Below are positions 5,036-57,113 of a DNA stretch of 57,918 nt, piece by piece. This DNA is from a virus (taxonomy: Duplodnaviria > Caudoviricetes): the IMG/VR virus record IMGVR_UViG_3300032799_000270, positions 1-57,918 of that record. One strand, given 5' to 3'. The notes under the pieces were generated by a model. The model saw only the letters and a list, made by a program, of their open reading frames with translations, did no database searches and was not told the DNA's origin. The translations under genes were made by a program, and so were the position numbers. Each line of letters begins with the position of its first letter. Positions within the stretch are counted from its first letter, which is position 1.

Positions 5036-5234
5036 CTTGCCGCTTTATGGTGCGTGCTTTCTTAGAGGCGGCGTTCGCCAGATCATAGACGCCATACTGT
5101 TTTGCCCACCGCATGACAGTCTCGACCGTGGCCAGTCCTCTACATCGTCGGAGCACATCCCAGTAGGTTTCTACCTCAGAGCTGGAGGGATTTGGGAACA
5201 GGCGCATTTTGGGGGTCATAATCCGTCTACTTCA

Positions 5235-5280: not shown

Positions 5281-5818
5281 TCAGCCAGGCGTGCGCGCAG
5301 GCTGAGCAGAACCACCGCTTCGGAAGCCTCTTCCCCGGTTTGACATGGAAGACATGCCCGCACTTCAGGGTCAGCACGACCCGTAGTCCGGTTCCCAGAT
5401 TCTCGGGCGGCTCGGAGGAAACCACCCGGCGCGGAAACGCGAAGCGGAGCCAGTGGGCGAGCCGGTAGGCAGGCGGGGCTGGTTTCTGCCACTCCGGTTT
5501 AGAGTCGAAAGTCATCATGAGACTCCTCCAATTCTGTAGCGCGGGAACAGCCGGTACAGTTTCAGCTTCCACCACAACCAACCCAAACTGCTCTCGCCCT
5601 CTGGCTTTCCGCGAGGCTTGATGTTGGGGCTGAGTATCCATTCGAGCATCAGCACGGCCGATTCGTTATCGACCACGCCAAGGTGCGGCTGCACAGCGGC
5701 CATGGACTTCGCCAGCAGCTTCCGGCGGTAAAAAAGCTCTTCTTGGATCTCAGCCTCGGTCTTCACTTCTGCCGCCTCTTCTCCGGGGACCGGCGTGTCA
5801 TTGGTCAGTTACCTGATT

Positions 5819-15168: not shown

Positions 15169-16938
15169 TCAGATTCCTACACAGGTCCAGGCACCGTTGA
15201 GCCGGATCGCCAAGGCGCCCGAACTGGCCCCGCCTGTCGAGCAAACCGTGGGCCCGGCCCCTGCTATCGCAGGATCGCAGTTGGAGCAGTACACGATGGT
15301 GCCATTGGCCGGGGCACCTAGATTTCCTTGGGTGAGCGGGGCGATGGTCATGCCGCCGGTTCGGCTAAACCGCGCTCTCTCAGTCATGGCAATGGCCCCA
15401 TCGTTGGCGGTGGAGATGATGAGGGCACCCGGCATGTCTCCGGCTCCCGGTGCGGCGTCCACGATGGCGGTGATCTCGGCTCCACCCACGAAGTCGTTTC
15501 CGTCCCATCCGTTTGCCCTCCAACTTCCGAGTTCGTCTCCTGCGTTCAAGATCACGGGGGCCGCAATTGTCCCCCTGGCGTGACGTGCCGCGAAGTCGGC
15601 TCCATCGGCTCCGTCGAAATACTGAGTAGACCTCACGATGACCCCGCCGGCGGTATTGCGGAAGTCGGTCAGAAAGTTGTTTCCGGCCACACCCGTGATG
15701 TGCAGATTGGCCAGGTCGTCATTGTCAACGGTCGCGAAGTAGTGCAGCTTGATGTCTGCCCCCGCTGCGCTGATTGTAGGCTGCGCCGGGCCTGCGAGGT
15801 TGGCAAGGTCGAGTCCGTAGGTGTACTGTCCGCCAGGCGTGGATCGTACCGTGACAGCCCGGAAGGCCGCCGGCACGGTGGCGGTAGGCGCCGCGTCTCC
15901 TTCGAGCATGGCCAGCACCACGGCGTCAGGGATGTTGTTGGCCGAGCCATCCTTGACTACTCCCATCAGGGCCGCCTTGCCTCCGGGGTTTTGGAAAGTG
16001 GTGGTGGGGTTCACGCCCGGAGTCTGATAAATACCCATCACGCCAGCCACGTAGCCGTTTGGGGCGTCCGCGGCGTTCACTTCGTTGATCTGGAGCCAGG
16101 AAGTCAGACCATAGAGGTTCGGTCTGACGATGCTCCCGTCATCCTGGATCGCGTAGACGCTCGCGCCATACAACTCACCCAGGTTGGAGCCCTTCTCGGC
16201 TCTTCCGACGAGCTGCACAGGGCGGATGCCGCCTGTTCCATTTCCACCTGAGGCCGCCAGAGTCACTGAGAATCCGTCCGTGTAGCCGGTCGCCGTGGCG
16301 TCCCGGGCGTAGATCTGCCAGATATTGTCGCCCGTTGTGAAGTTGGTCAAGTACGAAGCCGTGGTTCCACTCTGGATCTTCGGGAATCCCAAGGCTGGAA
16401 ACCACGGACTTGCCACGGCGCTCGTCCAGTTCAGTACCGGGCCCGACTGATCGCGGTTGTTGATCGATGCCGTGATCTGTTCTCCCCTGGCCTGTACCGT
16501 GCCTGCTGTGGGCCAGTTCACCACGCCTCCTCCCACATCCTTGAAGGCGAGCGCGGCGGTGTTGCTGGCGACCACACAATTCGCACACGTATTGGTCAAG
16601 GGCCAGTTGGGCGTAACCAACCGGATCACGTCGTAGCCCGTAGCGCCGGGTTGCGCCGGCCAGGAAACAGCCACCGGGTTGGCCCCCAGTCCAGCCACGC
16701 CTTGAGTTTGTCTGGCGATGCCGGGGCCTTGCTGGATGCTCACTCCCGCTGGGTACCGTGCGATGACCCAGTAGTATAGGCTGACGGTACCGGGGACTCC
16801 GGTGGCGACCGCCGTAACCCTGACAACTGGGCTGACTGCGCCTGCCTTGAATGTCAATTGGTCGATGATGCTCTGCTGCCCCCATCCGGCCGTGGCCGTC
16901 AAAAGGGCCAGCAACACTCCGAAGATTGTTTGCTTCAT
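15169..16938 (-). CDS. Large beta-rich spike/receptor-binding-like protein with signal peptide
   Basis: MKQTIFGVLLALLTATAGWG-Q; fibre-like RGTIAAP...GDELG...ERARF and GTIVYCSNC segments. Confidence 0.65.
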   Translation of the reverse strand: MKQTIFGVLLALLTATAGWGQQSIIDQLTFKAGAVSPVVRVTAVATGVPGTVSLYYWVIARYPAGVSIQQGPGIARQTQGVAGLGANPVAVSWPAQPGATGYDVIRLVTPNWPLTNTCANCVVASNTAALAFKDVGGGVVNWPTAGTVQARGEQITASINNRDQSGPVLNWTSAVASPWFPALGFPKIQSGTTASYLTNFTTGDNIWQIYARDATATGYTDGFSVTLAASGGNGTGGIRPVQLVGRAEKGSNLGELYGASVYAIQDDGSIVRPNLYGLTSWLQINEVNAADAPNGYVAGVMGIYQTPGVNPTTTFQNPGGKAALMGVVKDGSANNIPDAVVLAMLEGDAAPTATVPAAFRAVTVRSTPGGQYTYGLDLANLAGPAQPTISAAGADIKLHYFATVDNDDLANLHITGVAGNNFLTDFRNTAGGVIVRSTQYFDGADGADFAARHARGTIAAPVILNAGDELGSWRANGWDGNDFVGGAEITAIVDAAPGAGDMPGALIISTANDGAIAMTERARFSRTGGMTIAPLTQGNLGAPANGTIVYCSNCDPAIAGAGPTVCSTGGASSGALAIRLNGAWTCVGI

Positions 16939-40435: not shown

Positions 40436-42301
40436 ATGCCCAAAGTCACCACCAAACCCATCGAACCAAGCGGCAGCGCAGCGGCTGAACACCCCCCGCC
40501 AGGTGGCCAAGACACGCCGTCACCCGTGTCTGAGATGCTCGAATCCTCCCAGTTGTTAGGTGAAGAGGACCAAGTACCCGAGACACAGCCCATTTCGCCC
40601 CGCCAGGCCAGGTTGAAGCCTACCCCTGAGCCCCCGTACTACAAATTCCATTCGGACAACCCACGCGGCCGGCGCCCGAACGACTTCTTCGCCTACTGGA
40701 ACAGTATCGGACCGGAATTCCGGGAGCGCCTCACGGTCTACATCTACCGCAACTGGCCCGTGATCGCCATCATGGTTCCAGACAGGAAACGCGGAGGGCT
40801 AAAACCCACCTGCCAAATCGCCAAGATCCCGGGCGAAGACGCCATTCGAGACGAAGATCATCTGATGCGCCGGTTCGGCAGTGGAGATTACACCATCCGC
40901 CTGAACGACGCTACGGTTCGCAAATCCATCGCCTTGTGCGTCATCAAGGGACTGCGCGGAGGCGAAGACCACCCGCCGGTGATCGAAAACTACGATCAGC
41001 TCGTAACGGACGACCCGGCAAACCAGTCCTTCATCGAAGGTCTGAGACAAAAGGGAGCAATGCTAGGAGAAACCGAAATGGCAGGATCAGAAGCAATGAG
41101 CATTCTCGCAGGGACGGTGAAAGACCTTAGCGCCCAGAACGCCGCCCAGGCCGCCGCCCAGGCCAAGAAAGAACCAGCCCCCCAGCAGACGCCGGCGGAA
41201 GTAACGATCGCAACTCTGGAGATGGCCGGCAAAGCCTTTGACCAGGGGGTAGCGCTGACAGAAAAAACCATGGCGGCTCAGACTGAGGCAAAAGTTGCAA
41301 CAGCCAAAGCCGAAGCCGCAGTCACAGCCGCACAGTTAGTCCCTGCGCCGAACACCGGCCCGACCGACGCCCTGGACATGCTCACCAAAGTGGTGGGCAT
41401 CGTGTCCACGCTCGCAGCAGGCGGGCAGAAGGCGGAAGCGTCTCAACCCGTCCTCGACAAGGTGACAGCGCTGGCTGAAAGATTCATGGCGCGGGAAAGC
41501 GTTCTGGAAGGTCGCATCACATCGTTGATCGACGCCCGTATCCAGAGCCTGGAGACCCAACTCAAGAATCCACAGCCCGAACACGCTCAAGTTCCGAAGG
41601 ACGATCCGATCGCCAACCTGGAGAAGCTGCTCAACATGAAGGACAAGTTCCAGAATCTGTTCGGCGGCGGCGAAGGCGACGAGAAGGCAGAAAAAGTTCC
41701 GGCCTGGATGAGCATAGTTCAGTCTCTCAGCACCGGCCTGCCCGCGGCAGCGACCGCGCTACTCGCCATGAGCTACAACATGGCCATCGCCCGAACGGGA
41801 AGCGGAACCCCCATCCCTCCAGTTCCGGTTACGGAGAATCCCAGCTTGCCGCCGGCGCCAGATACATCCAGAACCACGACAGGAGAGAATGCCATGGGGA
41901 ATGCGGTTGCCAACTTCCTGAGCCAGATCGAACGTCCGCTCATCAACCACCTGAACGACTCCTCGAAAACCGGGGCGGACTTCGCCGACTGGGTGTCGAG
42001 CGGCTACGGGGACATTGGGTACCAAGCGGCCAAGGAAATGGGCAAGGACACGCTCCTGGCTGTGCTGGCTTCCCGGCCGACCATCGCCGCGGTCATCCAG
42101 CAGATTCCCGAACGCACCAGCCAGTTCATCGACGAATTTCTGACGGCCGACGAGGGGAACGAGGGCGACGAAGAACCAACTGAGACGGGTAATGTCAGAA
42201 CCTTCGTGGCTCCAGCCGAAGGCGCGGCTCAGATCGTGGATCTGCCGCCCATCGTGCAGGCTCAAGAGGGCGCAGGGAAGAAACGGAACGCAGGCGTTTA
42301 G
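40436..42301 (+). CDS. Large alpha-helical hypothetical protein divergent from the structural operon
   Basis: 621 aa; GAAGGAGAGG upstream and TGxTATAAT in the AT-rich spacer. Confidence 0.8.
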   Translation: MPKVTTKPIEPSGSAAAEHPPPGGQDTPSPVSEMLESSQLLGEEDQVPETQPISPRQARLKPTPEPPYYKFHSDNPRGRRPNDFFAYWNSIGPEFRERLTVYIYRNWPVIAIMVPDRKRGGLKPTCQIAKIPGEDAIRDEDHLMRRFGSGDYTIRLNDATVRKSIALCVIKGLRGGEDHPPVIENYDQLVTDDPANQSFIEGLRQKGAMLGETEMAGSEAMSILAGTVKDLSAQNAAQAAAQAKKEPAPQQTPAEVTIATLEMAGKAFDQGVALTEKTMAAQTEAKVATAKAEAAVTAAQLVPAPNTGPTDALDMLTKVVGIVSTLAAGGQKAEASQPVLDKVTALAERFMARESVLEGRITSLIDARIQSLETQLKNPQPEHAQVPKDDPIANLEKLLNMKDKFQNLFGGGEGDEKAEKVPAWMSIVQSLSTGLPAAATALLAMSYNMAIARTGSGTPIPPVPVTENPSLPPAPDTSRTTTGENAMGNAVANFLSQIERPLINHLNDSSKTGADFADWVSSGYGDIGYQAAKEMGKDTLLAVLASRPTIAAVIQQIPERTSQFIDEFLTADEGNEGDEEPTETGNVRTFVAPAEGAAQIVDLPPIVQAQEGAGKKRNAGV

Positions 42302-42409
42302 ACTCGAAACCTGAAAGGGGCGGCTGGCAACCCCGTGGAGAGAACCTGCCGCCCCCTCACGCCTCCGCTCTACGCCAAGACTAACGGAGCGGAGACGAAC
42401 TTGCAGAAC

Positions 42410-42943
42410 CTATTTCACCTCTCGCAGAGATTCCAGCAGCTTCTGCGGATCTACCTGTAATTGTCGTTTCTGCACCCGTTCCGATAGCATGGACTGGAAC
42501 TTGGGAGTGCTCGCAACTCGGGAAAGTTGAAGGACGCTGAGCGTCAGGTTGAATTCCTTTTGCTGCTCCCTGGTCAACTTCTCAAAATCAACCTGAATCT
42601 GATGGCGCATCCCCCGAACCGAAGTGCGGTTGATGTGGCGGATCACAGACGCTCCGCTTTTGACAATCTCAACGTCGGTCAACCGCTTGACGCCCTGATC
42701 CAGAAGAACTCCGATCACCATACCGTGCTCGCGGAGGACCTTGCGCCTAGCCGCTAGAAGATTCGCCCTGGCTTTCCCCTGGACGTTCCGATGGATCAGT
42801 TCGCTGAGTTCGCCATACGAAACCGATTCTCCTACTTTGAGGCCCGCCAAGCGAATGGCCAGTTGTTTGGTCTCGAAACTGATCTGCCCGATGGGGCGTT
42901 GATCTTCGTATTTCTCCTCTGATGCTACGTTTTGTCCCGCCAT
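42410..42943 (-). CDS. Winged-helix-like protein downstream of the RAMP gene and arrays
   Basis: GESVSYGELSELI..ARRKVLREHG..GVKRL; ATG directly after the array 1 handle. Confidence 0.6.
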   Translation of the reverse strand: MAGQNVASEEKYEDQRPIGQISFETKQLAIRLAGLKVGESVSYGELSELIHRNVQGKARANLLAARRKVLREHGMVIGVLLDQGVKRLTDVEIVKSGASVIRHINRTSVRGMRHQIQVDFEKLTREQQKEFNLTLSVLQLSRVASTPKFQSMLSERVQKRQLQVDPQKLLESLREVK

Positions 42944-42947
42944 AAAG

Positions 42948-43030
42948 CTGCTCTTGTCTTGTCGCGTCATGGTGAGTCGAATTCTGTTATGTCGCGTTAA
43001 GTCGTGTCAAGTCGAGTCGCGAAAACCGCT
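42948..43030. repeat. 5-nt-periodic array 1 (13 NN-GTC units), putative guide RNA
   Basis: CTGCTC-ttGTC ttGTC gcGTC atGGT gaGTC gaATT ctGTT atGTC gcGTT aaGTC gtGTC aaGTC gaGTC gc-GAAAACCGCT. Confidence 0.9.
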
Positions 43031-43064
43031 GATCCCTTCATTTGTCAAAAGTTCAGCATGAGAA

Positions 43065-43173
43065 CTGCTCTTGTCTTGTCATGGGCGGTCATGACGGGTC
43101 CGGTCCAGTGCGGTACGGTCATGTCTTGGCGAGTCATGTTGAGTCAAGTCATGGTCTGTCCTGTCGAAAAGCT
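43065..43173. repeat. 5-nt-periodic array 2 (19 units), putative guide RNA
   Basis: CTGCTC then 95 bp (43071-43165) in unbroken 5-nt phase, 12/19 triplets GTC, then GAAAAGCT. Confidence 0.9.
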
Positions 43174-43762
43174 ACTGATTCTGTCCCCTCCATTCGTCCA
43201 GCGGCACGCCGTCCACGGCCTCCACCCTGAACCTGCCAAAGTAGCCATTGCGCTCGGGGCGGAACCAGCCGAGTCCAATGAACTTCCCGGCCTCTTCCGC
43301 ATGATGCACCAGAACGGATGGGGTGATTACATCGTCCAGAACGGTTACGACGCAATTCCCGCCCCACTTGTGGATGATCCCGAAGCACTTCCAGACTCGC
43401 TTGGCGCCACCTCGCATCCCATCCGATGGCAGGTAGAACCACTCGCCGGGAACCTCGTCTTTCTTTGCGTCCAGCACCATCGAATCGCTCACGAAGATGC
43501 CGGACTCGAAGTGCTTGGTGAAGGTCGATTTGCCCTTCCCCGGGATCTGCTCTCCCAGGTACTTGGCGATGCTCGACAACATGTTCTTGAAGGCCATCTG
43601 GGAGATGAACACGTAGCCCAGATCAGTGGCTCGCATCCTCTGCCGCCAGGTTCGCTTTTCGTAAGCGGCCGAGCTTTCTTTGGCCATCTTGGGCGGATCG
43701 GCATAGGGTGCGCTTTGGGCGTAAGGGCTGATGCCCTTTAGCGTGAAGGTCGTGGTATACAT
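43172..43762 (-). CDS. Standalone Cas7-like RAMP-superfamily protein (196 aa)
   Basis: FTLKGISP (beta1), YVFISQMAFKNML, G-rich loop EEAGKFIGLGWFRPERNGYFGRFRV; GAGGAG RBS before ATG 43762. Confidence 0.8.
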   Translation of the reverse strand: MYTTTFTLKGISPYAQSAPYADPPKMAKESSAAYEKRTWRQRMRATDLGYVFISQMAFKNMLSSIAKYLGEQIPGKGKSTFTKHFESGIFVSDSMVLDAKKDEVPGEWFYLPSDGMRGGAKRVWKCFGIIHKWGGNCVVTVLDDVITPSVLVHHAEEAGKFIGLGWFRPERNGYFGRFRVEAVDGVPLDEWRGQNQ

Positions 43763-43784
43763 TCGATTCTCCTCTTCATGAAAA

Positions 43785-43874
43785 CTGCTCTTGTCTTGGC
43801 TGGTCCGGTCCTGTCGAGTCGTGTCCAGTTCAGGCGCGTCGTGGTCGGGCGCGTGCGGTCCTGAAAAATCCGCT
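43785..43874. repeat. 5-nt-periodic array 3 (14 units), putative guide RNA
   Basis: CTGCTC then 70 bp (43791-43860) in phase, then ct-GAAAAATCCGCT; fills the gap between the ParB-like and RAMP genes. Confidence 0.9.
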
Positions 43875-44745
43875 ATTGCCTTTCCATCAACTCCCGCATC
43901 CGGTTCAGCACGGCCCGGGGCCCAGCTTCCCCGTCGATGCACTTTACCACCGTCGAGCACAGCTTCAGGATCGGCTCTTCAATCGTGCCGTCCTGGCAGC
44001 CCGCGAACTCGGCGAACAGGTTGCGGATTTCCTTGCGGCTCAACCCGACCGGACCGGCGGTCTGTTCGCCCCGTTCCACTTTCTCGCGCTTTACCTTGCG
44101 GACGTGCTGGCGGGTGACTTTGGCCGTCGCTTCCGGTTTGCCGGCGGCTTTGGCTTCGGCCCGGGACTCCTCCATCACCTGCTCGCGGGCTTCGGCGGGC
44201 ATGCTGACCATCTCGTAAGCCGTGACGGCCGGGAGCTCGCCCCGATGCACCTTGCGCTGGAGATCGGCGGGCAATTCAGCGAGTTGCAGTGTGGTCGAAA
44301 TGAGGGTCTCGCTGCACTCCAGGAGTTTGGCGATCTCTTTCCGGGTCCGACCGTTCGACTCCAGTGTCCGCATGATGTAGGCCAGGTCGATGGGCGAAAA
44401 GCCCTTGCGCTTGTGGGTGGCGGCAATCGAGGCTTCGTAGCTGTTCTCGCCTTTATAAACCTCGCAGCGGACCTTCAGGGGTTCAGCCGGATTCAGGCCG
44501 TTCTCGTTGATGTAGCGGATGGCGGTCACGCGCCGGTTACCGTCCAGAATGTGCGGCTCGCCCTGCTTGTCCGTGTAGATCACCACGGGCACCAGTTGGC
44601 CGTGCTCCAGGATCGACTGAGCCAGTTCCAGGACTTCGGTATCGGGCTTGTTCCTCGGGTTTTCCCCCGGCTGCAAGTGCTCCGGTGGAATCTGATAAGC
44701 GTTGGAGCGGCTCACGCCCTCCAACTCGACCAGTTTCAGCGGCAT
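43873..44745 (-). CDS. ParB/Srx N-terminal domain protein with HTH
   Basis: NPR..ELAQSILEHGQLVPVV..ILDGNRRVTA; RKEIAKLLECSETLISTTLQL. Confidence 0.9.
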   Translation of the reverse strand: MPLKLVELEGVSRSNAYQIPPEHLQPGENPRNKPDTEVLELAQSILEHGQLVPVVIYTDKQGEPHILDGNRRVTAIRYINENGLNPAEPLKVRCEVYKGENSYEASIAATHKRKGFSPIDLAYIMRTLESNGRTRKEIAKLLECSETLISTTLQLAELPADLQRKVHRGELPAVTAYEMVSMPAEAREQVMEESRAEAKAAGKPEATAKVTRQHVRKVKREKVERGEQTAGPVGLSRKEIRNLFAEFAGCQDGTIEEPILKLCSTVVKCIDGEAGPRAVLNRMRELMERQ

Positions 44746-44775
44746 GTTGTTCTCCAGGGCAGGCTGGGAATGCTG

Positions 44776-45060
44776 CTATGCCGGAACGGCTTCGTCCTCG
44801 TCGCCCTCGTCTTCCTCTTCGGTTTCCAGCACGAACTCCCACTCTTCGACTTCGTGGTCCTCTTCCACGAGTTCAGGATGCCCGTCCACCATGCGGTAGA
44901 TCTGAGCGTCTTCGGCCTCTTCGGCGCTGTCCACGGTCGTGAAGTGCAGCACGCCGCCGCATTCGATTTCAGCCGTGTCGCCGTAGTCCGCGACTCCCGA
45001 CTCTTCGCCGCCCGGTCCTACCAGTTGGTAGCCGTCGTCGTCCACTTCGATCTTCAACAC
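44776..45060 (-). CDS. Small, highly acidic protein
   Basis: GGAGGAGG RBS; D/E-rich throughout with a tail EEEDEGDEDE. Confidence 0.75.
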   Translation of the reverse strand: MLKIEVDDDGYQLVGPGGEESGVADYGDTAEIECGGVLHFTTVDSAEEAEDAQIYRMVDGHPELVEEDHEVEEWEFVLETEEEDEGDEDEAVPA

Positions 45061-45080
45061 CTGCGTTTCCTCCTCCGTTC

Positions 45081-45109
45081 AGTATGGGCGGCTCATGACC
45101 GCCCGTCAA
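45081..45109 (-). promoter_or_regulatory. Sigma70 promoter of the acidic protein-ParB-RAMP operon with operator-like TTGAC-N5-GTCAT
   Basis: TTGACG-17-CATACT. Confidence 0.7.
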
Positions 45110-45349
45110 GATCTCAAATGCTTGGCCTTTGCCAGCCCTCGGATGATCCCTGCCAGGGCCGAACGGGTCTGTGGGTCCTCTATCGCGGCCTGCAATTCCT
45201 CAGGCGTGAGACGGCACAAAATCCCGTTGTGCAACACGCACACACCTGAGCACTTCCCGCACACCGAGATTTGCCCTTCCTGGGTCAGACACCTTCCCCT
45301 GAGGTTGAACTGATCGGTCACCCGGCGAGAGCAGTGGGGGCAGGCGGGT

Positions 45350-49690: not shown

Positions 49691-50932
49691 TCAGGTCGAG
49701 CATGGGGGTTCCCCTTGCAGTAGGGGTAACAGATTGTCGAGTCGGGTTTGAGCGATCCCAACGTAGTGCGGGTCGATCTCAATACCCACCACTTCGTCCC
49801 AGCCCCCGTTCCACGCTCCGATCATCTCCGAACCTGAACCCGCGAACGGCACAATGATACGGCGTGGGGCTTCGCTTCTCGCCGGCGGCAACAGGAGCTT
49901 GGCCAGGTAGCGGCAGAGGTCCAACGGTTTCACGGTCGGATGGATATTGCGCCCGCGCTTGGTAACCGTGTCCAAGCCCTTGTCGCGTTCGTCCGTATTG
50001 GCCTTGGCGGTGTAGAAGAAACGGGATGCACCGCCGGAGTCGCCAGGATACTCAGTGCTCTTGTGGTTGTCTGTGCCCCATGCCGTGCCTTCCACACGGG
50101 CGCTCTGGCTGCGAGGACTACGCTTGCCAGTCGTGCTCGTGGTCCCGCTCTGTTCATCCAGCATCGCCCCAGCCTCTTCGTCCAGGATGAGGTTGGCGGG
50201 CCAGCGACCAAGTGAAGACTGTTGGAAATCGGGGATGTCTCCGGGGTTCGGCGTATGCCCTTGCGCGAATTTTCCGCCACGAATATCGTCACGGACGGTT
50301 GACCCTTGAAGCTTTTCAGTTGTCTCGACCCTCCCCCCATCAATCCCCACCCCCGCCACCCCCCACTTCAGAGCGTTCTCCGCGAACGTCCCCTCGCAGG
50401 GCTTCATGGCGAGTAGGATGGGTTCCCAGGCAGGCTTCAGGGCTGTGCCGTAGCCGGACCACTGGCGGGCGGTATCAGTGGCAGGGGCAGTGATACTAGG
50501 ACCTCCGGTGTTACCACCTGCATAGATGCCTGCGTATTGCACACCAGAAACTGGTCTGTGATTTGGGTTCTCTCCGATAATCTCTCGCTTTGCCCCTGCC
50601 GCCTTGTCAATCGCCTTCGAGATGTCCAGCGACTTCGGAAACCCGCTCCCATACAGCCACATCAGCGTATCCCTCAACTCGAACCCAGCGTCCTCGATGG
50701 CACACGCCAGCCGGTGCCAAGTACGGGTGCCACCGAAGGCCAGTAGAAATGCACCGGGCTTCAGAACGCGCAAGACCTCTCGCCATATCTCCGGTGATGG
50801 TATTCCGTGGTCCCACAACTTGCCCATGAACCCTAAACCATAAGGCGGGTCGCACAGGCAGGCGTCGAAGGAACAGGCAGCCAACTTGGGCAGCAACTCG
50901 GCTACGTCTCCCTGGAGAATGCGGTAGCTCAC
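49691..50932 (-). CDS. Orphan N6-adenine/N4-cytosine DNA methyltransferase
   Basis: DPPY, HPTVKP, PFAGSGSE motifs; GTG start. Confidence 0.93.
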   Translation of the reverse strand: MSYRILQGDVAELLPKLAACSFDACLCDPPYGLGFMGKLWDHGIPSPEIWREVLRVLKPGAFLLAFGGTRTWHRLACAIEDAGFELRDTLMWLYGSGFPKSLDISKAIDKAAGAKREIIGENPNHRPVSGVQYAGIYAGGNTGGPSITAPATDTARQWSGYGTALKPAWEPILLAMKPCEGTFAENALKWGVAGVGIDGGRVETTEKLQGSTVRDDIRGGKFAQGHTPNPGDIPDFQQSSLGRWPANLILDEEAGAMLDEQSGTTSTTGKRSPRSQSARVEGTAWGTDNHKSTEYPGDSGGASRFFYTAKANTDERDKGLDTVTKRGRNIHPTVKPLDLCRYLAKLLLPPARSEAPRRIIVPFAGSGSEMIGAWNGGWDEVVGIEIDPHYVGIAQTRLDNLLPLLQGEPPCST

Positions 50933-51486
50933 CCCCCGCCTCCCATCATGCCCCGCAACTCGGCAAGACCCCGCAATAGCTCCTCGGCTTTCGACTCCAA
51001 AACGTCCAACTGAGCCTGGGCCGTAGGCCGCTCGACCGGGACCGCGGCTGCGAGTTTCGCAACCAGGTGCATCACGGAGGTGTGATGAAACCCACCGAAG
51101 ACCCGGCCGATGAGCGGGAAGGAGTAGCCTAACTCGCGCCTTATGGCTGTCATGGCTTCGGCCCGGGCCTGGACGATCAAATGGAACCGGCCGCCGTGCT
51201 CGCCGTTCTTTTGGAGTTGCTGCGGTTCGATGCCATGCTTTGCAGCGATGGAGGCGATGATCTTGCGGGCCCGGGGCCAACCCGTCAGCATGTCGGCCCT
51301 TCTGGTGTTGCGGGTCATGCCAGCTCTCATCTTGGCGGCGTAGACGTCCAACTCGGCCCGATGGGGAGTGGTAAGCGGTGGCCGGAGCGGACCAGAGCCA
51401 GGGCGATCACGTCGGACAGGATGATCACCCTGACCCGCAACGATGAGCCGGTCCAGTTCTCCCAAGCGTTCACAGCGGGCGCTCAT
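50929..51486 (-). CDS. DnaA C-terminal (domain IV) HTH-like protein
   Basis: ARAEAM..YSFPLIGRVFGGFHHTSVMH. Confidence 0.8.
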   Translation of the reverse strand: MSARCERLGELDRLIVAGQGDHPVRRDRPGSGPLRPPLTTPHRAELDVYAAKMRAGMTRNTRRADMLTGWPRARKIIASIAAKHGIEPQQLQKNGEHGGRFHLIVQARAEAMTAIRRELGYSFPLIGRVFGGFHHTSVMHLVAKLAAAVPVERPTAQAQLDVLESKAEELLRGLAELRGMMGGGG

Positions 51487-52651: not shown

Positions 52652-53086
52652 CTATCCATGGAGCACCTCCGGTCGCTGGTCCCATTCCCACAACCCAAGG
52701 CTGCCTTTTGCTGGGATGTGCCCCGGTAGCGGCTGCACGTTGTCTAGAATCCAAGCGTACCGGCCCCCTCCATAATCTCCGAATGCCTGCTCCTGTTTCG
52801 TGAACAAGTGGCGGAATAAGGGGCTCACTTCGATGCTCTCGGTTGGGATGCAGTCAAGCAGCCGGCACGTTGCCAGCACCGCTCCACGCGGATACTCATA
52901 GTGCCTACCGAGCATCACGCTCACGGGCGGGACGGCGCTAAACCTCCGTGCCTCCTGCGGGAATCCCTTCGCTGCGTGAATCGCCAACGGCCCGCGGTAG
53001 GACGTGCCCCAACTCCGCGTCTCGAGCCGCTTCGCGCCGATCACCACCAGCGTGGCCCAGGGTTGCGTCAGGGTCAGAGCTTTCAT
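52652..53086 (-). CDS. ASCH-domain protein
   Basis: MKALTLTQPWA..GAKRLETRSW..GPLAIHA..KGSLGLW. Confidence 0.9.
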   Translation of the reverse strand: MKALTLTQPWATLVVIGAKRLETRSWGTSYRGPLAIHAAKGFPQEARRFSAVPPVSVMLGRHYEYPRGAVLATCRLLDCIPTESIEVSPLFRHLFTKQEQAFGDYGGGRYAWILDNVQPLPGHIPAKGSLGLWEWDQRPEVLHG

Positions 53087-54038
53087 CCCCACCCCTCCGG
53101 TCGCTGGTCCCACAGCTTGCCGTCGAGCATCCGACCAGCGCCTTTCTTGCCGACGCGTTGATGACTGATGCCATGGAGGTTCACGGGCATCCACTCCCCC
53201 CACTGCTTGAACAGGAACGGCACGCCTGCCGCAACGCACTGGTCCCGAATCGACCGTACCCACTCGCGGTGCATCGGCCTCGCCCCCGGCCCTGACTCGC
53301 CGCCGATGATCACCCAATCTAGGCCACGGAATTGCATCGGCATGTCGGGCTCCCTGTCACACTGTTCGGACGACAGCATGTGAGTGCCGCCGCATCCGTC
53401 GCATGGTTCAGGGTCGGAAAGGTAGTCCCGCAAACACACCTCGCCCAACAACGGCTCCAGACTCACAAACCTCATCGCCGCAGGGGTAGCCAGCAAGTCC
53501 GGTATCTGCTCATCGGCCCGCTCCTGATCTTCGCAGGAGACGCCCAGGATCAGGTTGGGGAGAGGCCATCGGTATGTGCCGAGGGCTTTGGCGTAGGCGG
53601 TGATCGCCGCCGGTCCCGTTAGTAGGTCTGCCCAGTCGCTCAGACGATTACTGGCCACATTGCCGACATACACCTTCATCCTCTGCGCCCGCTTGGTGAG
53701 CATGATGAACCGATGCTGTGGGCACAGCGCCATCACCGCGAACATCCGGTCCAGCCACTCGTCGGGCACAGATTCATGGAAAACGTCTCCCATGAAACCG
53801 AGCCCGATGACGGCGGGCTGACGCCGGTGCAACAACTCCTCCAGGGCGGTCTGATTAAATGCCGTCTTCCCGGTCCAGTTTCCCTCGCGGTCAACCACGT
53901 CTTGGTATTGCTTGATGCCAGCACTGCGGAGCCTCCGCGCCATGCGCCGGGCCCAACATCTCTCCGCACAGGGCAGGCTCATATCGCAGCCCACGATGGG
54001 GTTGGAGGTGAAGTCGAGGTACTCAATGCCGGTACGGT

Positions 54039-54042
<4 letters not shown>
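53083..54042 (-). CDS. Phage Gp37/Gp68 (DUF5131) family protein
   Basis: IEYLDFTSNPIVGC..CAERCWA, LTKR, SLEPLL, WVIIGGESGPGARP, FKQWG. Confidence 0.9.
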
Positions 54043-55007
<965 letters not shown>

Positions 55008-56549: not shown

Positions 56550-57113
56550 ATGAGTATCTTGAAATTTGCCGTCAACACGCCGGTTCGCGTGGCCCTGAGC
56601 TATCCGACCGGCAAGGAGTTTGCTGGAAAGTTTGGGCCTCGGGTTTTGTTCAGCCTCTGCCTGGCGCCCGCCGGCGAGCGCAGCATGTATCTGCCGCCGA
56701 TTGCCGCTGAGCAGATCGCTAAGCTCGGGATTGTCCAGGGCGAGCCGTTCCAGATCGTCAAGGCGACGGTCCCGAACGTTGGCCGGCCTAAGATCGAATG
56801 GCAGGTGAGCAGGATTGAGACGAAACACGCCGAGCGCGAGACGAACCCGGCCGCTGCCGAGACGAAACCGGCCGCTGCCGAGACGAAACCGCAGCAGACG
56901 GGCCATGCCACGAAGAACGGCGTGCCGTACCGAGACCCCAAGGCCGAGTGGCTCAGATGCGCCGATGAAGCTGTGGAGGTTCTGGTGACGGCCCGGGCCC
57001 ATGCCGCGGCCAAGGGTCTGCCGGTGCAGTTCAGCGGGGAGGACGTGCGGGTGGTGGCTTCGACGCTCTATATCGGGCGGGGGCAGGATCGGCGGGCTTC
57101 AGCCCTTCGCTGA
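56550..57113 (+). CDS. Hypothetical protein, possibly OB-fold, with ETKPAAA repeats
   Basis: AAGGAG RBS; 21-bp tandem repeats at about 56838-56891. Confidence 0.65.
   Translation: MSILKFAVNTPVRVALSYPTGKEFAGKFGPRVLFSLCLAPAGERSMYLPPIAAEQIAKLGIVQGEPFQIVKATVPNVGRPKIEWQVSRIETKHAERETNPAAAETKPAAAETKPQQTGHATKNGVPYRDPKAEWLRCADEAVEVLVTARAHAAAKGLPVQFSGEDVRVVASTLYIGRGQDRRASALR

Follow-up and report, generated by a model that had tools for sequence, protein, structure and literature searches.

The complete 57,918-bp virus record IMGVR_UViG_3300032799_000270, referred to here as the window, carries on its minus strand, between 45109 and 42410, a compact locus in which three arrays of very short repeats lie around a gene for a 196-aa protein. 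In the direction of these genes, an acidic open reading frame (ORF) is followed by a ParB-like gene, array 3, the 196-aa ORF, arrays 2 and 1, and finally a 177-aa ORF, and the order and coordinates that the original prediction had given for this stretch all hold. The locus very probably represents a phage-borne Viral Interference Programmable Repeat (VIPR) system, composed of the protein Vipr, three vrRNA genes and the accessory protein Vap. Its features, together with those of its immediate surroundings, are listed below in the leftward direction.

45081-45109, minus strand: candidate sigma-70-like promoter, TTGACG-17-CATACT, matching the consensus at 9 of 12 positions
44776-45060, minus strand: ORF of an acidic 94-aa protein, with 34 D+E and 2 K+R residues
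43873-44745, minus strand: ParB-like ORF, 290 aa, matching phrog_1033 (E 8.2e-33) and Pfam HTH_ParB (E 9.4e-7)
43780-43862, minus strand: vrRNA-A (array 3), 15 pentamers at 43788-43862 plus tail
43172-43762, minus strand: vipr gene (196-aa ORF), with the ribosome-binding site (RBS) GAGGAG at 43769-43774
43057-43167, minus strand: vrRNA-B (array 2), 20 pentamers at 43068-43167 plus tail
42944-43020, minus strand: vrRNA-C (array 1), 14 pentamers at 42951-43020 plus tail
42410-42943, minus strand: vap-like gene, 177 aa, with a predicted winged-helix-like N-terminal domain
42314-42397, minus strand: two strong GC-rich hairpins found by folding after the vap stop, the second one followed by UUUCAGGUUUC

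Three arrays of NNGAC pentamers

At the sequence level, the unit of the arrays is a pentamer with two variable bases (NN) and three constant ones (GAC). The arrays that had been predicted are real, but they are made of this pentamer and not of a CRISPR repeat with spacers. Exactly NNGAC is read in 29 of the 49 units and the final C is kept in 45 of them; array by array, the exact trimer is found in 8 of 15 units of array 3 (final C in 14), 12 of 20 units of array 2 (final C in 19) and 9 of 14 units of array 1 (final C in 12). The dinucleotides differ among the three tracts with the exception of the last two units, and all three arrays share a common 3' end, AAGAC-AAGAG-CAG followed by the pyrimidine- or U-rich stretch YTYT. 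In vrRNA-A the last units AAGAC-AAGAG are followed by CAGTTTTC (43780-43787), the tail of vrRNA-B is CAGTTCTCATG, and that of vrRNA-C, CAGCTTT, extends up to the ATG of the 177-aa ORF. Predicted folding of the three vrRNAs yields z-scores of +1.22 (vrRNA-A), -1.45 (vrRNA-B) and 0.00 (vrRNA-C), none of which is significant.

This periodicity is a singular property of the locus. GAC on the minus strand (GTC on the plus strand) is the top-scoring of all 64 trimers for 5-nt phasing in the 57.9-kb record, where 5-nt periodic NN-GAC tracts occur at these three intergenic places only. In a phased scan, 5-7 GAC per ten successive 5-nt-phased positions were reached at just two minus-strand places, those of the arrays, with a maximum of 4 elsewhere. 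A tandem-repeat finder detected no CRISPR-like array in the 57.9-kb record, and the three tracts are not CRISPR arrays because their period is that of a 5-nt pentamer and they lack CRISPR-type repeats. Searches against Rfam gave no family at the gathering score in the whole window and only a chance microRNA match (E 1.4) in 42300-45200, which indicates that no hammerhead ribozymes lie between the arrays; a scan of the sequence for tRNA and tmRNA found none.

The arrays are tightly fitted between the genes. Array 3 starts 10 nt past the stop codon of the ParB-like ORF and array 2 starts 4 nt past that of vipr, while 25 nt, with GAGGAG among them, separate the end of the repeat tract of array 3 from the vipr ATG. 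vrRNA-B and vrRNA-C are separated by a 36-nt spacer (43021-43056). A promoter-like sequence, TTGACA-18-CAGAAT (43010-42981), lies inside array 1 and is made of repeat units. Pentamer arrays remain open in one frame ('MTRQDK...' or 'MARQG...'), as seen at 42944-42970 of the window and in the related loci L003, L027, L038 and L052, and ORF finders consequently over-extend vap upstream into the array. The vap ATG at 42970 is such an artefact inside array 1, and the start of the gene is likely to be at 42943.

The probable Vipr and Vap proteins

The proposal that the 196-aa protein is a RAMP is borne out by its predicted structure, which displays a Cas7/Csm3-like fold. The model, obtained from 58 sequences, has a pLDDT of 88.7, and a Foldseek search with it retrieved 85 PDB chains at E<=1e-3, headed by a type VII Cas7 (E 1.8e-7) and then by Csm3. 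The protein matches no Pfam family. Its homologues, of ~185 aa, number at least 791 in metagenomic and viral data, the best 120 of those listed being 53-61% identical to it. The G-loop of the window protein reads G163-x-G165-W166-F167-R168-P169...G173...G176-R177-F178, and a thumb-like hairpin at approximately residues 106-128 includes an invariant R122. A comparison was made at the profile level, with the Vipr protein of phage SUSP1 (KT454805, 28477-29061) as reference: hhalign of the 58-sequence family profile against it gave a probability of 96.8% and an E-value of 2.2e-10 over 121 columns, G-loop included. The 196-aa protein is very probably a Vipr and, as such, a minimal RAMP that has a single RRM and is related to Cas7/Csm3.

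The 177-aa protein was modelled with a pLDDT of 90.6 as a helix-strand-helix-helix-hairpin arrangement followed by long helices, corresponding to a predicted N-terminal winged-helix-like domain at approximately residues 20-90 and C-terminal long helices. Foldseek returned no match for this model at E<=1e-3. The similarity of the family to the Vap1 profile of SUSP1 is weak (69% probability, E 4.4e-5) and falls on equivalent positions, and BLASTP of the protein itself against SUSP1 Vap1 gave an E-value of 0.54. This winged-helix-like protein is very probably Vap, the accessory of the system; the original prediction had put it forward as an accessory or effector candidate, and its recurrent position beside vipr is described below.

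Conservation of the locus among related viruses

For comparison, the best 80 of 163 confirmed viral loci with relatives of the 196-aa protein were employed. Arrays with a 5-nt period are present in 66 of the 80. In 42 of 78 loci, an array starts after the vipr stop at a median distance of 5 nt, and in 35 of 78 one finishes ahead of the vipr start at a median distance of 32 nt, so that the abutment of arrays on a stop codon and on the next RBS, first noticed in the window, turns out to be a family trait. The related arrays contain 6-38 units (median 12), 29 of 169 having more than 16, and up to 7 of them follow one another in a row. Their polarity is tied to the strand of vipr: the final trimer is followed by AA in 112 of 169 arrays, versus 10 of 169 in a mirror control. 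The ending AA-trimer-AAG is the consensus of the clade (171 arrays) and is common to different repeat types. These figures substantiate the conserved 3' handle and the fixed orientation on the gene strand that had been read from the three window arrays.

The same set of loci separates the genes of the system from those that merely lie next to it. A vap-like homologue on the same strand beside vipr was found by profile search in 75 of 80 loci, downstream in 60 and upstream in 15; 22 of the 75 matching loci supplied rows to the profile and match it by construction, and 2 of the 5 loci missed are truncated contigs. By tblastn alone, the gene is seen in 42 of 80 loci. The pairing is in agreement with the published association of vipr and vap. 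Homologues of the ParB-like, the acidic and the other flanking ORFs were found in 0 of the 80 related loci. Of the neighbourhood proposed in the original prediction, the winged-helix-like gene is consequently retained, whereas the ParB-like protein, advanced as a further accessory or effector candidate, and the acidic 94-aa gene, placed in the same operon, are left out; judging from sequence, both are unrelated local neighbours that share the direction of transcription and lie outside the system.

Comparison with described systems

VIPR has been defined as a system formed by a phage-borne minimal RAMP (Vipr), vrRNAs and a vap accessory gene (10.64898/2026.04.26.720920). The vrRNAs are built from YNNGG pentamers, 9-16 in number, and a 3' tail, double-stranded DNA (dsDNA) is recognised by the NN bases with one target base skipped, the SUSP1 system binds DNA through these NN bases, and no self-target was reported in the published systems (10.64898/2026.04.26.720920). 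According to the accessible part of a second preprint, each repeat is bound by one Vipr protomer, and the trimer is held by the thumb and the G-loop through H17, D177, R138, W178 and R179 (10.64898/2026.04.26.720927). GAC/NN and CAC/NN are included among the non-canonical VIPR repeats located beside Vipr-like folds in the portion available of a third one, in which they were found by entropy periodicity (10.64898/2026.10.21.760802). The window locus combines homology to SUSP1 Vipr with pentamer vrRNAs, a conserved 3' tail and an adjacent vap gene; no CRISPR array is present at it, and the neighbours scanned matched no Cas family.

The likeness to SUSP1, a type II system (Vipr + vrRNA1-4 + Vap1; the type label is that of SUSP1 only), extends to several levels. 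In both, a Vipr of ~195 aa contains an RRM core, a thumb and a G-loop, tandem pentamer guides share a conserved 3' end, vipr has arrays upstream as well as downstream, a small accessory gene of DNA-binding-like type occupies the same strand, and the phage-borne system has no self-target. Regarding the differences in gene arrangement, vap1 overlaps the vipr stop in SUSP1, whereas two vrRNAs lie between vipr and vap in the window. The closest counterpart of the repeats is provided by the non-canonical arrays mentioned above, in which a fixed GAC alternates with NN at period 5 beside a Vipr-like fold, the same repeat class as in the window; as far as the available portion of that bioinformatic catalogue (21 non-canonical clusters) goes, it records ~10 repeats per array, compared with 14-20 in the window. 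The locus and its GAC/NN repeat variant thus both belong to kinds already described and are not new, and the published classification may already cover the clade of the window.

Several observations weigh against the assignment to VIPR. All the experiments have been carried out on the canonical GGY trimers (GGT or GGC in SUSP1), the trimer of the window is GAC, and its exact units amount to only 29 of 49. The tail is short and predicted to be unstructured, with no stable fold, whereas that of the SUSP1 clade is a pseudoknot. vrRNA-B, with 18 variable and 2 tail units, exceeds the published range of 9-16. The SUSP1 and window loci have no BLAST-level similarity, and tblastn revealed none between the window Vipr and any isolated phage. 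Furthermore, D177 of SUSP1, the reader of G1, aligns with W166 in the window protein. Finally, exact-pattern scans gave no natural target above chance, as detailed in the following section.

Search for targets

No self-target was identified in the window record under any skip rule: with skips of 0-2, the best matches equal those of shuffled controls, and a skip of 3 finds only the arrays themselves. When 162 guides of the relatives were compared with all the loci and the window, the mean best match was 0.690, 0.697, 0.692 and 0.695 for skips of 0, 1, 2 and 4, respectively, with no signal.

The scans of sequence collections were restricted to exact patterns without mismatches, a procedure that would miss targets at 80-95% NN match. 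For the full-length pattern with a 1-nt skip, vrRNA-C had 0 exact matches in viral contigs and 0 in metagenomes, and vrRNA-A had 0 in genomes. Partial patterns of vrRNA-B likewise gave 0 exact matches for units 10-18 in viral contigs, units 1-11 in metagenomes and units 8-18 in genomes. A handful of matches was obtained with sub-patterns of nine units. Units 5-13 of vrRNA-A have 2 viral matches, one of which extends by a single unit, neither being codon-phased; units 4-12 of vrRNA-C have 6, located in at least 3 unrelated ORFs that encode a common helical peptide, none extending through units 1-3; and units 1-9 of vrRNA-B have 6, five without extension and one, in L090, that extends by one unit. 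All these nine-unit matches were judged to be due to chance. Since the scans accept exact patterns only, the lack of foreign targets is uninformative.

Alternative explanations

Among the explanations that compete with a VIPR system, a translational regulator similar to TRAP survives best, even if it is improbable. In TRAP, a protein multimer reads (G/U)AG triplets spaced by 2-3 nt on single-stranded RNA, and the window protein would in an analogous manner control the translation of its own gene and of the one after it by binding the triplets of their leaders, with no DNA target. The constant triplets of the arrays stand 2 nt apart, as in the (G/U)AG repeats of TRAP, the arrays end 25 nt or less before the vipr and vap starts in an adjacency that is common in the relatives, and no target emerged from the exact-pattern scans. 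Against this, the dinucleotides vary between tracts and between relatives, a variation for which a pure operator would have no need; the spacer bases of TRAP are uninformative, whereas the 2-nt spacers of the window are variable and presumably bear information. In addition, vrRNA-B precedes another array and not a gene, up to 7 arrays are consecutive in the relatives, the fold of TRAP is unrelated, and the homologous SUSP1 system binds DNA via its NN bases (10.64898/2026.04.26.720920). Autoregulation may nevertheless accompany the main function as a by-product.

A degenerate or miniature CRISPR-Cas remnant, that is, a stray Cas7 with mini-arrays whose contiguous spacers guide RNA or DNA targeting, is highly improbable. 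It would account for the best structural matches, type VII Cas7 and type III Csm3, and for the position of the arrays on either side of the RAMP gene. Nevertheless, the period is 5 nt and the locus has no spacers between direct repeats of 25-40 nt, no other cas families were found among the scanned neighbours, the homologues are encoded on viral contigs where 5-nt arrays of the same kind recur, and comparison of profiles identifies the protein as homologous to SUSP1 Vipr. The comparison with the class 1 Cas7/Csm3 proteins of types III, IV and VII points in the same direction, as these have a period of 6 and share only 5-19% sequence identity with the window Vipr, and class 1 CRISPR systems differ from the window locus, which lacks a repeat-spacer array and, among the neighbours scanned, Cas5, Cas6, a large subunit and adaptation genes.

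Very short direct-repeat arrays serve as centromeres in some plasmids, and a DNA centromere or iteron array bound by the ParB-like or the winged-helix-like protein for phage partition or replication, an idea that the short direct repeats and the ParB-like gene directly upstream could evoke (no ParA was seen in the ORF list, to which the search for it was confined), has very little likelihood given that the arrays are kept in 66 of 80 related loci with a ParB homologue in none, that array polarity is tied to vipr, that sites repeated every 5 bp would alternate between the two faces of the duplex, and that the arrays have as their conserved partner a protein with the RNA-binding fold of a RAMP. 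By the same count, none of the 80 loci with the same arrays and RAMP contains the ParB component of a ParABS module. The TRAP-like and the ParB-centromere readings were both dropped on the grounds of the RAMP fold, the neighbourhood counts and the VIPR literature.

Probable transcription unit and flanking genes

The candidate promoter at 45081-45109, upstream of the acidic ORF, is a consensus-level match only, because the 3.2 kb scanned contain 2 promoter-like sites compared with 0.6 +/- 0.9 in shuffled sequences. Its spacer consists of a GC stem of 6 bp and a loop of 7 nt, and the ORF upstream has a stop codon that overlaps with the -35 hexamer. The element could equally be an RNA hairpin between cistrons. 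In view of the GC stem-loop in the spacer and of the upstream genes that run in the same direction, transcription may start further upstream of 45109. At the opposite end, the hairpins at 42314-42397 have a minimum free energy of -53 kcal/mol (z -3.77), a stability equalled by 0 of 200 shuffles, and a gene on the plus strand runs towards them. They likely mark the end of the operon between convergent genes, and their position after the last stop codon fits a single leftward transcription unit that ends near 42314.

With respect to the two flanking genes, HTH_ParB scores above the Pfam cut-off in the ParB-like ORF and ParB_N falls just under it. The acidic 94-aa ORF matched no Pfam or PHROG family; its composition is typical of DNA-mimic anti-restriction proteins, a role that is speculative here.

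Other features of the phage

Beyond the locus, the window encodes a DNA methyltransferase (49691-51280; phrog_67, E 6e-45), a tail-fibre-like protein (15169-16938; phrog_9942, E 9e-15) and a protein whose function is unknown (53083-54120; phrog_2045, E 1e-87). At E<=1e-5, five of the ten large ORFs compared with PHROG remained without a family, and this scarcity of matches indicates a very divergent phage. At 54659-54800, a 24-nt unit is repeated 5.9 times with 94% identity, and further short tandem repeats are found at 54259-54304, 54376-54423 and 56817-56891; these repeats of the 54-57 kb region may be iterons or belong to an origin or packaging region.

Proposed mechanism

The steps of the mechanism have been demonstrated for VIPR relatives and would be carried over to the window locus by inference. 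The region would be transcribed leftward, after which one Vipr protomer would bind each pentamer, sequestering the GAC trimer between the thumb and the G-loop and leaving the NN bases exposed on a helical filament. This filament would recognise dsDNA of the form (NNx)n, in line with the rule of a 1-nt skip, with formation of a gapped R-loop. As a final outcome, transcription of a competing mobile element would be silenced, an effect that Vap would enhance.

Two ideas of the original prediction concern the steps that precede recognition. Excision of the guides from a polycistronic RNA, on the one hand, and translational autoregulation of Vipr by its loading on array 3, on the other, are both compatible with the anatomy of the locus, and both would fit the tight spacing between arrays and RBS (25 nt to the vipr ATG, and the tail of array 1 at the vap ATG).

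Trimer variation and guide specificity

The constant trimer is far from uniform in the family. Among the related arrays, GGC is the trimer in 103, GAC in 21, CGC in 20, GTC in 10, GTT in 8 and CTC in 5; the accessible part of the catalogue does not mention GTC, GTT or CTC among the variants of the VIPR repeat (10.64898/2026.10.21.760802). Within a single Vipr clade of ~50-60% identity, the trimer switches repeatedly among the same six types, which hardly cluster on the protein tree and are scattered over it (26 changes versus a shuffled mean of 29.4); even sister pairs such as L061 (GTT) and L064 (GGC) differ in this regard. In locus L030, one vipr gene is accompanied by both GAC- and GGC-type arrays (5097-5149 and 5305-5352), a coexistence suggesting that the Viprs of this clade are not strict about the trimer's middle base.

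On the protein side, residue 166, which aligns with D177 of SUSP1, is R in 32 of 32 GGC-type Viprs. W or F occupies this position in 4 of 7 GAC-type Viprs (those of the window, L036, L057 and L070), each of which has also changed S15 to A or G; among 45 Viprs with other repeat types, 0 have an aromatic residue at 166 and 0 a residue other than S at 15. On well-supported branches of the tree, this covariation between residue 166 and GAC is reduced to one independent pair. Given that the phylogenetic test is without power, the covariation of residues 166 and 15 with GAC is only a lead.

A further reading, which is doubtful, takes GAC/NN guides and their Viprs as a separate orthogonal class and joins to it a translational autoregulation that sets the ratio of protein to guide. 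The changes R166 to W/F and S15 to A/G may in this reading re-tune the pocket for the constant trimer, and a GGY-type Vipr of a competitor could not hijack the guides of the phage. As vrRNA-A and vrRNA-C lie in the translation-initiation regions of vipr and vap, respectively, the amount of protein per guide would be governed by the filaments that assemble on the RNA as it is being made.

The recognition of VIPR, as a possible ancestor of CRISPR effectors, dates only from 2026. In the accessible parts of the VIPR preprints, no experiment on the GAC/NN variant was found described, and the window offers a clean and compact example of it. If the pairing between trimer and protein is specific, the trimer variants would be candidates for orthogonal programmable DNA binders, as well as material to address how phages avoid the redirection of Vipr by foreign guides.

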